From an uncultured virus (IMG/VR IMGVR_UViG_3300030331_003482) (Duplodnaviria; Heunggongvirae; Uroviricota; Caudoviricetes): DNA of 20,000 bases. The stretch lies in IMG/VR virus record IMGVR_UViG_3300030331_003482, positions 45,227-65,226 of that record. One strand, 5' to 3'. Position 1 is the first letter of the stretch. Every line of letters starts with the position of its first letter. Position numbers and translations under genes: made by a program. The notes under the pieces are model-generated. The model saw nothing but the letters and a program-made list of their open reading frames with translations. It searched no databases and was not told the origin of the DNA. Shown here piece by piece: positions 2,509 to 7,531 of this stretch.

Positions 2509-2526
2509 AATTGTTAAATTTATATT

Positions 2527-2559
2527 TATTATCCTATTGTCATCGTATTTTGTTTGTAA
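2527..2559 (-). promoter_or_regulatory. Conserved early-promoter-like motif, copy 2
   Basis: TTACAAACAAAATACGA-N9-GATAATA. Confidence 0.75.
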
Positions 2560-2560
2560 T

Positions 2561-2665
2561 AAGTGGCGGCCAACCTGTGAGCAATGTCTTAAGCTTCTCA
2601 CGATGGACCGAGTTACGTATTGTTCACTTTGGGCTCACTTCTGAACGAAGTTACCTCGCCACCCC
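2561..2665 (-). ncRNA. Putative structured ncRNA (closed multi-branch fold)
   Basis: GC-rich island. GGGTGGCG/CGCCACTT and TAACTT/AGGTTG close the ends; internal stems are GTTCA/TGAAC and GTGAG/CTCAC. Confidence 0.5.
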
Positions 2666-2694
2666 AATACTGCGGTGCTTCCATCAGCCTGTAG

Positions 2695-2768
2695 TGGACG
2701 TGGCAGGAGTCGAACCTGCGTCTGGCACCTTTGCTTACGCCGAGGTTGCCGCCAACCATTACACGCCC
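2695..2768 (-). ncRNA. tmRNA-like tRNA-like domain lacking the mRNA-like domain (mini-tmRNA / Ala-tRNA mimic)
   Basis: Acceptor GGGCGTG/CACGTCC with G3-U70 and discriminator A. Stemless D-loop TAATGGTTGGC. Helix GGCA(A)CCT/AGGTGCC capped by GC-GTAA-GC. AGAC linker, then T-arm GCAGG-TTCGACT-CCTGC. Confidence 0.75.
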
Positions 2769-3304: not shown

Positions 3305-3337
3305 TATTATCTTGCTTTAATCGTATTTTGTTTGTAA
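3305..3337 (-). promoter_or_regulatory. Conserved early-promoter-like motif, copy 3 (embedded in the 3' end of the upstream CDS)
   Basis: TTACAAACAAAATACGA-N9-GATAATA; ATG at 3297. Confidence 0.75.
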
Positions 3338-3771
3338 TTCTTTAAATAGTATTCTAACATATAGTTTAATCTAGCTAAGCTTGACCGTACTTTAGCCCTT
3401 GCTTTACCTATAAACTTTCTAGTTTGTAGTTTACCATCGATCAAGAACGTAGTTCTTTGCTCTTGATTATACGTTTTATTTATTTGATATGGTGAATAAC
3501 AACCATTTTGTTTTCTAACATAACCTGATTTGAAGCAAGCTAGTCTTAATCTTGGTGTATTTTCCCACTTAGTTCCGCTTGATATTAACCATCTTTTGTA
3601 ATAAGCGTTAGTATTAGCGTACGTAGAAACAGGAAACTCAAATTCTCTTGTACCATTTATCGCTTGTTTTTGAGTGGTTACCTCTTTAATATTATACTTA
3701 ATTAGCAATTGTCTTACAAAAGCGTTCTCAAGTGCTTCTTGTTCTAGTTGATATTTAGTTGCTTGTGTCAT
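3307..3771 (-). CDS. Basic phage hypothetical protein
   Basis: 154-aa ORF with A-rich leader. Confidence 0.75.
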   Translation of the reverse strand: MTQATKYQLEQEALENAFVRQLLIKYNIKEVTTQKQAINGTREFEFPVSTYANTNAYYKRWLISSGTKWENTPRLRLACFKSGYVRKQNGCYSPYQINKTYNQEQRTTFLIDGKLQTRKFIGKARAKVRSSLARLNYMLEYYLKNYKQNTIKAR

Positions 3772-5712: not shown

Positions 5713-7287
5713 ATGGAATATAATCAACCAAGCCAGATCGTCAAGAATCTTGACTATGGCTTAAATGCTAAACGCAAAATAATAGATGGTGTAGACAAAC
5801 TGAATAATGCAGTTAAATCTACACTGGGAGCCTCAGGAAAATGTGTCATCTATGAAGACGCATTAGGCAAGCCGGTGATTACAAAAGACGGTGTAACGGT
5901 AGCTCAATCCGTTGTCTTATATGATCCGGTTGAAAATATCGGAGCCACACTTATTAAAGAGGCTGCGAATAATACAGTGAAAGAAGCAGGTGATGGTACC
6001 ACTACGGCTACTGTCCTTGCTCACTCACTATTAACAATTGCAGAAGAATATGAAAAAGAAAATCAAAGAGAAGTTAAAGAAGGTATTAGATCTGGTACAG
6101 AAAAAGTTATCTCTCATTTGGAGAAACAAAGTATTAAGGTTACTGATGATCTATTACAACAAGTTGCTACGATATCTACTAACAACGATGAAGAGTTGGG
6201 TGGAATTATTGCAGAAGCATATAAGCAAGTAGGAAAAGATGGTATAGTCTTAATGGAAGGATCGCCAACGGGTGAAACATATGTTGATGTTGTTGATGGT
6301 ATACAAATGAAGTGTCCACTTAAATCACCTTATTTAATTACAGATAAAGATAAAGGCACGTGTGTATTAGAAAATCCTGCAATACTTATATCTTCATCAC
6401 CTATACCTAATATAAGAAAGATACAGAATATATTAGAACATTGTATAAAAGGTAATAAACCTTTATTAATAGTAGGTGATATTGAACAGCAACCAAAAGC
6501 TGCATTACTTACAAATAAAGTAAAAGGTAACATAAAAGTTAACTTTATTGATTTACCTGGTTTTGGTCCTACAAAAGAAGATACTATAGAAGATTTAGCT
6601 ATAGTAACAGGTGCTAAAATTATAAATGAAGAACTTGGTGACGATTTTGAGCTAATAGATCCTAGTTGCTTAGGTGAAGCTGTTAAAGCAGTAACTGATG
6701 ATAAGCATACAGTGTTAACTGTAAATAAATCAGGTAAAGAGTTAAAAGATCGTGTAAAACAAGTAAAAGATATAATTAAGAAGGAAACTAAAAATCCCTT
6801 CTTAAAAAAGAAACAACAAGAGAGATTAGCAATACTTAACGGATCCGTTGGTATCGTATTTGTAGGTGCTGATAGCGAAGTTGAGTTAAAAGAAAAGAAA
6901 GATAGAGTTGAAGATGCTATTTATGCTACGAAAGCAGCATTACAAGAAGGCATCGTACCAGGTGGTGGTATAGCGTTATTAAATGCCGCCAAGTCTATCA
7001 AACCAAAAAATGTTGGTGAAGAGATATTATTACAGGCGATAACAATGCCTTTTCAAACCATATTAGATAATGCTAATATTGATGTGCCTGAAACTAAACT
7101 CAAAACAGGTTACGGGGTTAATGTCATAAACGGTGAAATAGTTGATATGGTTAAGTCTGGTGTTATTGATCCGGTTTTGGTTACAAAATCGGCGCTTAAA
7201 AATGCTGCATCAGTAGCAAGCACTATAATATCTGCAGACTGTATAATAAGTAACGTTAGAATATTAAAACAAGATGAAAGCAGTTAA
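5713..7287 (+). CDS. groEL: Phage-encoded group I chaperonin (Cpn60/GroEL-like)
   Basis: ITKDGVTVA, AGDGTTTATVLA, LKEKKDRVEDA, GIVPGGG and GVIDP motifs; 524 aa; no GGM tail. Confidence 0.97.
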   Translation: MEYNQPSQIVKNLDYGLNAKRKIIDGVDKLNNAVKSTLGASGKCVIYEDALGKPVITKDGVTVAQSVVLYDPVENIGATLIKEAANNTVKEAGDGTTTATVLAHSLLTIAEEYEKENQREVKEGIRSGTEKVISHLEKQSIKVTDDLLQQVATISTNNDEELGGIIAEAYKQVGKDGIVLMEGSPTGETYVDVVDGIQMKCPLKSPYLITDKDKGTCVLENPAILISSSPIPNIRKIQNILEHCIKGNKPLLIVGDIEQQPKAALLTNKVKGNIKVNFIDLPGFGPTKEDTIEDLAIVTGAKIINEELGDDFELIDPSCLGEAVKAVTDDKHTVLTVNKSGKELKDRVKQVKDIIKKETKNPFLKKKQQERLAILNGSVGIVFVGADSEVELKEKKDRVEDAIYATKAALQEGIVPGGGIALLNAAKSIKPKNVGEEILLQAITMPFQTILDNANIDVPETKLKTGYGVNVINGEIVDMVKSGVIDPVLVTKSALKNAASVASTIISADCIISNVRILKQDESS

Positions 7288-7531
7288 TTATTATATAGTT
7301 ATTGATAAAATTAAAGAAAAACCTAAATCAGAGTCTGGCTTTGTATTATCTGAAGCACAAAGCGAAGATGTAAGGTTTTCTAAAGGTAATGTAATTAGCG
7401 TGGGTGAAGCAGTTAACGGTATTAACGAAGGTGATATTGTGTGGTATGACAAACACGCTGGTAACGGAATTGAGTATGATAACAAATATTATTATGTTAT
7501 CAAACATGGGGATGTTGTTATAATAGAATGA
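7274..7531 (+). CDS. groES: Co-chaperonin (Cpn10/GroES-like)
   Basis: 85 aa; mobile loop KSESGFVL, GNVISVG, INEGDIV; overlaps the groEL end. Confidence 0.92.
   Translation: MKAVNYYIVIDKIKEKPKSESGFVLSEAQSEDVRFSKGNVISVGEAVNGINEGDIVWYDKHAGNGIEYDNKYYYVIKHGDVVIIE

Follow-up and report, generated by a model that had tools for sequence, protein, structure and literature searches.

Trans-translation is the main ribosome-rescue route of bacteria, and the locus described here raises the question whether a phage may encode a tmRNA reduced to its tRNA-like domain (TLD), and what such a message-less RNA could do to this route. The locus lies in the last 20 kb of a 65,226-base IMG/VR virus record that is rated complete, and we refer to this whole stretch of 20,000 nucleotides as the window. 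A preliminary description, made from the letters alone, had read positions 2692-2768 of the minus strand as a message-less tmRNA TLD with alanine identity. Its letters agreed exactly with the record, where the minus strand from 2768 to 2692 reads GGGCGUG UAAUGGUUGGC GGCAACCUCGGCGUAAGCAAAGGUGCC AGAC GCAGG UUCGACU CCUGC CACGUCC A CUA, and the proposed identity is backed by this sequence, by a global match to the Rfam tmRNA model, by a covariance model of a marine family to which the element belongs (model R1) and by the conservation of G3-U70 and A73 among relatives. We consider it very probable that this segment is a real TLD-only RNA gene, which we call a mini-tmRNA or, for short, a mini.

The gene comprises 77 bases in all, namely a 74-nt body (2695-2768) and an encoded 3′ trailer, CUA (2692-2694). 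Its 5′ acceptor strand GGGCGUG (2762-2768, with G3 at 2766) pairs, as judged from the sequence and from the minimum free energy (MFE) fold, with the 3′ acceptor strand CACGUCC (2696-2702), in which the sequence and the Rfam match place U70 at 2698. The resulting 7-bp acceptor stem thus carries a G3-U70 pair and is followed by discriminator A (A73) at 2695 and then by CUA, not CCA. Between the two acceptor strands, and likewise on the minus strand, lie a stemless D-loop analogue with GG (UAAUGGUUGGC, 2751-2761), helix 2, which in the MFE fold is closed as a 27-nt hairpin with a GUAA loop (GGCAACCUCGGCGUAAGCAAAGGUGCC, 2724-2750), an AGAC linker (2720-2723) and the T-arm GCAGG-UUCGACU-CCUGC (2703-2719). 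The pattern of the helix 2 hairpin, CAACC-NCG-GC-tetraloop-GC-AAAGGUG, recurs elsewhere and is termed module 1 below. The MFE fold of the element as a whole is Y-shaped (z = -2.19). Two features of tmRNA are therefore present, the 7-bp acceptor stem with G3-U70 and discriminator A, and the T-arm with a stemless, GG-bearing D-loop, which in tmRNA form the elbow bound by SmpB. tmRNA's mRNA-like domain, with its pseudoknots, resume codon and tag frame ending in a stop, is absent, and so are the D-stem and the anticodon arm with a 7-nt loop that characterise tRNAs (RF00005), the inner arm of the element closing in a 4-nt loop.

Searched with the Rfam tmRNA model (RF00023), the element gave a global match (model positions 1-374) of 40.2 bits (E 1.4e-14 for 701 bases searched), in which the 304 model positions from helix 2 onward, holding the pseudoknots and the tag frame, are reduced to 10 nt. 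The earlier statement that no tag is encoded is borne out by this deletion of the pseudoknot and tag part and by the absence of a tag reading frame. RF00023 scored better at this site than the other members of its Rfam clan. The gathering score of the model is 47 bits and the element falls below it, such that the match is visible only with E-value reporting; at gathering scores, Rfam listed nothing for the element region, and ARAGORN called no tRNA or tmRNA in the window or in the whole 65-kb genome, which hence lacks tRNA genes by this program. The check with Infernal and ARAGORN that the preliminary description had suggested thus came out for a tmRNA, at a sub-threshold score, and returned no ordinary tRNA. 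Three further readings of the locus were dropped. A micro-tag, GCG-UAA, could be read in the loop and was rejected because relatives carry GAAA or UUCG loops instead; a second or permuted tmRNA downstream was rejected at 18 bits (E 0.18) for the tmRNA_permuted model, with a spacer that folds no better than shuffles and a weak alignment fold; and a K-turn reading of module 1 found no support when judged by eye.

To what extent the element has relatives was addressed with a 25-nt pattern running from the T-loop to the trailer, which fixes U70, A73 and CUA by construction. This pattern matched at least 119 IMG/VR stretches. Among 121 pattern matches listed, a script that looked for a fully paired 5′ strand GGGNGUG 61-146 nt upstream identified 96 minis (81 distinct sequences), while the other 25 were full-length tmRNAs or had no clear assignment; ARAGORN called eight of the listed matches tmRNAs with tags, and one ‘mini’ (L063) tRNA-Pro. 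The family shares a constant frame, GGGNGUG-AAAUGGUUAG ... AACG-T-arm-CACNUCC-A-CUA, around a hypervariable inner arm of about 25 to 100 nt that is assembled from recurring modules, some of them nested. Across an alignment of 50 minis, the GG and the next U of the D-loop were at least 90% conserved, the two T-stem pairs left free by the pattern covaried and were unpaired in none of the 50, and the covariation score of the structure was 0.404, as compared with 0.096 in shuffles and at most 0.103 when the structure was slid along the alignment. Helix 2 was 71% paired in a fixed register, a figure lowered by register shifts between arms. For 19 of 20 minis with long arms the best Rfam match was tmRNA (31.5-52.7 bits), only one of them above the cut-off, and none of the inner arms at these 20 loci matched another Rfam family at E ≤0.5. 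Since Rfam tmRNA scores mostly stay below the cut-off, the family has remained unannotated.

The window element has near-identical copies in L332 and L333 and is 91% identical over 81 nt to L034; in L006, a homologue that shows compensatory changes is found upstream of the same gene, of 152 aa. An exact 28-nt scan of IMG/VR gave no match. Among cultured phages, blastn returned no match for the element region or the whole window, and with the full mini as query it found T-arm matches to tRNAs only; model R1, run on five cultured Flavobacteriia phage records, found tRNAs and one odd weak match, the canonical mini being absent from these five. Matches of the pattern in bacterial genomes were mostly full-length tmRNAs from many phyla, with the acceptor strand CACCUCC. 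One bacterial assembly (L318, genome_contigs) holds an 84-nt TLD-only element with the bacterial-type frame UUCGAC...GGAC. The CUA trailer (less often CAA or CUG) stands in place of CCA after phage tRNA genes as well as after minis (L004, L005, L006 and the primase-anchored loci described next).

Because the pattern fixes U70, A73 and CUA, we built model R1, a covariance model of the marine family, and a sample of loci anchored on a protein, which is the only one of our sets that is informative on the conservation of these residues. The sample consists of 80 loci anchored on the primase-helicase (72-89% identity), chosen without regard to RNA and searched with R1, which was itself trained on the pattern-based set and favours G-U by a few bits. 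The window element scores 68.4 bits with this model. Of the 36 loci that extend at least 8 kb upstream of the primase-helicase, 22 have a canonical mini, mostly 7.0-8.0 kb upstream of that gene; the mini of the window genome lies 7.4 kb upstream of it. Among the 25 full-length R1 matches of at least 43 bits, 24 carry G3-U70 and 24 carry A73; L201 has A3-U70 and discriminator C. The neighbouring pair 4:69 is C-G in 16 of these 25, A-U in seven, and G-C and U-A in one each, and the trailer is CUA in 19, CAA in four and CUG in two. That the G3-U70 wobble is kept while the neighbouring pair drifts argues for selection on alanine identity, despite the bias of R1, and the element is probably alanylated, to judge from its sequence and that of its relatives. 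The covariation that had been proposed as a check on homologues was found both in the free T-stem pairs of the 50 minis and in pair 4:69 of the 25 matches.

The expectation that homologues would conserve G3-U70 and helix 2 held within the canonical family but failed beyond it, where at least four relatives at the same genome position lack G3-U70 and forms of 43-50 nt lack helix 2. The former, which we call type B, are tRNA-like elements with a T-arm and a GG loop but without G3-U70. They occupy the position of the mini in at least four of the 14 loci without a canonical mini (L130, L158, L159 and L204). One of these is the closest relative (L130, 89% primase identity), in which a type B element (L130:2627-2708) replaces both the 73-aa ORF that lies upstream of the mini in the window and the type A gene, with the downstream spacer kept. 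Another type B element lies upstream of a different anchor gene, the 152-aa gene (L004), and had no Rfam match at E ≤1. The forms without helix 2 consist of an acceptor stem, a D-loop-like linker and a T-arm, and measure 43 nt (L186:3590-3632, L173:3746-3788, L185:4024-4066 and L207:4242-4284) or 50 nt (L135:2635-2684, L187:2850-2899, L160:3524-3573 and L178:1433-1482); their acceptor sequences vary, and G3-U70 is found only in L207 and L135.

The inner arms are portable as well. The 16 matches to module 1, spread over 15 IMG/VR stretches, comprise ten in type A minis, two in type B elements, one in another tRNA-like element, two outside any TLD and one by chance. Its tetraloop is GUAA, GAAA or UUCG, and the closing pairs of helix 2 differ among its carriers (GGCA/UGCC, GACA/UGUC, AGACA/UGUCU and GUGCA/UGCAC). 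A second module, ‘hairpin X’ (...CUUGGCUUCCUUAAGGUAUCAGUUGUACAAAGCCA...GUAGUGACAG), stands free after the mini in two loci (L006:2055-2130 and L004:2420-2500) and lies inside the mini arm in three others (L104, L107 and L193). Hypervariable as it is, and built from portable modules found outside TLDs too, the arm may itself carry part of the function.

The preliminary description knew of no such form in phages, and here it was mistaken. A tmRNA of ‘Mycobacterium phage DS6A (TLD only)’ is in print (Hudson, Lau and Williams 2014; PMC4131195; tmRNA Website tmID 11587), and its element matches the marine model R1 at 43.8 bits, with G3-U70, A73 and a CUA trailer; CUA follows many bacterial tmRNA genes, too. 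In the DS6A record the element is found at 28478-28560 (L129:579-661), in the gap between gp33 and gp34, and has no GenBank feature. Expression of the DS6A form in E. coli inhibits the endogenous tmRNA, according to the 2025 tmRNA database paper (PMC11915505), while the 2014 paper, citing Mao et al. 2009, describes inhibition of E. coli tmRNA by a TLD-only molecule similar to that of DS6A and reports that charging was not needed for this inhibition (PMC4131195). In the main texts of the literature, these reports on DS6A were the only ones of a phage TLD-only or mini-tmRNA, and no large phage family was reported. The window element and that of DS6A have in common a phage-borne complete TLD with G3-U70, A73, a stemless D-loop, a T-arm, helix 2 as a short hairpin, no tag frame and CUA. 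They differ in host and lineage, DS6A being an actinobacterial siphovirus and the window belonging to a marine phage with a likely Flavobacteriia host, and in their acceptor and arm sequences; moreover, DS6A was described as a single case, whereas the window element is one of a large family whose arms are swappable and which has alternative alleles. The element is thus a further case of the kind known from DS6A, within a large unannotated family of marine phages. New here are the match of DS6A to the marine model, the protein-anchored conservation, the type B allele in the closest relative, the forms without helix 2 and the adjacency to tRNA-Met genes.

With bacterial tmRNA (ssrA, RF00023) the element shares the acceptor with G3-U70, discriminator A, the GG of the D-loop and the T-arm, and both ends of the model are matched, but it lacks the pseudoknots, the resume codon and the tag frame. 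The D-loop region reads UGGUUUCGAC in bacterial tmRNAs and UAAUGGUUGGC in the window element, and the base of helix 2 is UUCGAC...GGAC in bacterial tmRNA, UUGGC...AGAC in the window and UUAG...AAC in the family; because of this difference at the base of helix 2, affinity for SmpB is not assured. SmpB is described as binding the TLD elbow and requiring the contact between D-loop and T-loop (PMC3968760). An engineered TLD made of the 5′ 25 nt and the 3′ 34 nt joined by a UUCG loop (PDB 2CZJ) was crystallised with SmpB (PMC3929946), and TLD fragments are reported to enter the ribosome with SmpB and EF-Tu and to support template-free polyalanine synthesis (PMC3929946; PMC3895274). These fragments, which bind SmpB and EF-Tu (PMC3929946), follow the same design as the window RNA but are laboratory constructs derived from full-length bacterial tmRNA and show only what such an RNA is capable of. 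Natural tmRNAs without a coding sequence are described from plastids (about 65 bp) and mitochondria, and a role in coping with incomplete mRNAs is ascribed to them (PMC11915505). Those of jakobid mitochondria and of some plastids, which lack a message, resemble the window element, by description, in consisting of a TLD of similar size without a tag frame. In organelles, however, such RNAs accompany a nucleus-encoded SmpB and presumably benefit the organelle, whereas the window phage has no SmpB among the 67 ORFs scanned.

The first 4700 or so positions of the window carry minus-strand genes only. Directly upstream of the RNA is a 73-aa ORF (2768-2989, from the ORF list), for which no Pfam or PHROG match was found. 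The G of its TAG stop (2768-2770) doubles as G1 of the RNA, so that cleavage by RNase P would strip the stop codon from the mRNA of this ORF. Such an overlap between stop codon and G1 occurs in six of 90 distinct contexts, and in four more the stop ends directly before G1; a comparable overlap, of smpB and ssrA, is described from Carsonella (PMC4131195). On the other side, a 131-nt spacer conserved in relatives (2561-2691, minus strand) separates the RNA from the next promoter-like motif. The spacer region is 92% identical over 154 nt to that of L159 and 76% identical to that of L130, where it lies downstream of the type B element, and a 48-nt block of it (2562-2609) recurs at about 93% identity in L040 and L118. 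It holds a stretch resembling the type B interior (AAAGUGAACAAUAC), and its fold is no better than that of shuffles (z = -0.21). The promoter-like motif (ATTACAAACAAAATACGA...GGATAATA, 2521-2566, minus strand) precedes the next gene and is shared by many related loci, where it often comes directly behind the mini, and it has a partial repeat at 3320-3338; in its gapped form it has one exact match in the window and none in 200 shuffles. The phage encodes a sigma-like protein (L128:4363-5130). The next gene was listed as an ORF of 107 aa from GTG 2601 (2278-2601); ATG 2508, which lies behind the motif and gives 76 aa, is its probable start. Neither an intrinsic terminator nor a sigma-70-like promoter immediately ahead of the RNA turned up in simple scans. 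In many relatives (L007, L016, L017, L032, L037, L049, L051, L055, L066 and others) a tRNA-Met (CAU) gene follows a few bases downstream of the mini, and ARAGORN called 22 tRNA-Met, two tRNA-Gln, one tRNA-Asp and one tRNA-Ala on the 80 primase-anchored loci. The nearest cultured relatives of the primase-helicase come from phages of Cellulophaga (40% identity), Tenacibaculum, Riemerella and Flavobacterium, which makes a member of the Flavobacteriia the probable host.

Part of the stretch is present in twenty public runs, five of them RNA libraries (contigs compared), and contigs from three studies cover neighbouring genes. The RNA is not covered by any assembled contig of the RNA libraries that has the window's own sequence. 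A contig of run X17 covers 2769-2965 and ends one base before G1; being a single contig from one study, it is not evidence of cutting by RNase P. Another contig, of X16, carries a relative's mini, in a type of library in which DNA may be present.

Building on the anatomy, family membership, conservation and covariation found here, we infer the following course of events for the phage's own host. The mini-tmRNA would be co-transcribed with the small ORFs upstream, cut by RNase P at G1 (2768), trimmed of its CUA trailer, provided with CCA by the host and charged by AlaRS through G3-U70 and A73. Its elbow, formed by the stemless D-loop and the T-loop, would bind host SmpB, and the RNA could thereby compete with host tmRNA for SmpB, AlaRS, EF-Tu and stalled ribosomes. 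As it has no pseudoknots, resume codon or tag frame, trans-translation could not finish on it, and the outcome would be competition and less tagging of stalled products during infection. We give roughly even chances to this reading, that is, to a processed, alanylated and SmpB-binding TLD-only competitor of host tmRNA, and somewhat less than even chances to competition with tmRNA-SmpB being its selected function. Of the roles that the preliminary description had proposed, the SmpB decoy is the one with published support, which comes from a similar molecule in E. coli as described in the two tmRNA papers (PMC4131195, PMC11915505).

An unlikely alternative is that the RNA rescues ribosomes without tagging, the alanyl-TLD together with SmpB taking over the nascent chain from a stalled ribosome and adding one or repeated alanines. 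This would free ribosomes, or yield alanine tails without a proteolysis tag, as proposed for the message-less tmRNAs of jakobid mitochondria. Because G3-U70 is kept, ribosome entry stays in consideration, and the retention of both G3-U70 and A73 in 24 of the 25 strong matches fits such a role, given that charging is reportedly dispensable for inhibition (PMC4131195); so does the help with incomplete mRNAs ascribed to mitochondrial and plastid tmRNAs without a coding sequence (PMC11915505). However, the mini-tmRNA has no stop codon and release would therefore need another factor, while homologues of release factors, ArfB and Pth were absent among the 67 phage ORFs scanned, and type B alleles at the same locus dispense with G3-U70 altogether.

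About as unlikely, in our estimate, is that the frame is a processing mark and scaffold, which mainly recruits RNase P and 3′ processing enzymes to cut a polycistronic transcript, and which also stabilises and presents the variable inner arm as the part that does the work, for instance a hairpin that binds a protein or acts as a decoy. In favour of it, hypervariable, modular arms sit on a constant frame, and module 1 and hairpin X are found within type A arms, within type B elements and on their own. Relatives carry several tRNA-like mini elements, including the 43-50-nt acceptor/T-arm forms with their varied acceptors, and the minis adjoin a tRNA-Met gene, in many loci, or the end of an ORF. 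RNase P, however, has no requirement for G3-U70 or A73, and yet these residues are kept in 24 of the 25 strong matches, on a frame that is tmRNA-like beyond being merely tRNA-like. Moreover, no arm at the 20 loci matched an Rfam family at E ≤0.5, the module 1 tetraloop varies between GUAA, GAAA and UUCG, and no partner is known.

The type B alleles and the portable arms, which keep the scaffold in play, do the same for a more speculative reading that we regard as rather improbable, namely that the locus is not a plain SmpB sponge but an arms-race cassette in which type A, type B and changing portable arms swap at one position among close relatives, and in which, in those elements that retain alanine identity, a charged TLD-SmpB complex may add untemplated alanine tails to stalled chains, much as TLD fragments are reported to do in vitro. 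If true, the virus would be running a tailing of host or phage proteins that needs no message. Still less probable, and very unlikely in absolute terms, is a decoy for defence systems, in which the RNA would absorb a nuclease or sensor of tRNA- or tmRNA-like shapes, such as systems with SmpB-like domains. The fast turnover of arms and alleles among close relatives does resemble an arms race, but a genomic link to defence is absent in the window, we know of no such defence in the likely hosts, and the reading is one of pure analogy. Elsewhere, CoCoNuT restriction systems are predicted to combine SmpB-like OB folds with RNases (PMC10542128), and a staphylococcal phage anti-CRISPR is described as acting with t(m)RNA fragments (PMC11662646). 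Finally, the view that the element is a tRNA, ordinary or decayed, or the remnant of an attachment site copied from the tmRNA gene of a host, is close to refuted: although tmRNA genes are common integration sites (PMC9004378) and tRNA genes lie near the element in relatives, the anticodon arm is absent and ARAGORN calls no tRNA, both halves of the TLD are present and not the 3′ part alone as in an attP copy, no integrase was found among the 67 ORFs scanned, the acceptor GGGCGUG/CACGUCC occurred in bacterial assemblies only in four minis on small MAG contigs (120 stretches), and the element is conserved with covariation.

A viral RNA that blocks or redirects trans-translation would be a cheap and protein-free means of host takeover. 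The TLD-only form is common in uncultured marine phages, has one phage example in print and is missed by both the Rfam cut-off and ARAGORN; the family also offers natural variants, which possess or lack G3-U70, possess or lack helix 2 and bear many different arms, and on which the workings of a message-less tmRNA could be tested. As to its own gene content, the window phage has no SmpB among the 67 ORFs scanned and encodes a crAss-type muzzle domain, a BACON domain, ribonucleotide reductase, thymidylate synthase, ERF, a sigma factor, the primase-helicase and GroEL/GroES. The GroEL (524 aa) and GroES (85 aa) homologues adjoin the structural genes, at positions 5713-7531 of the window.
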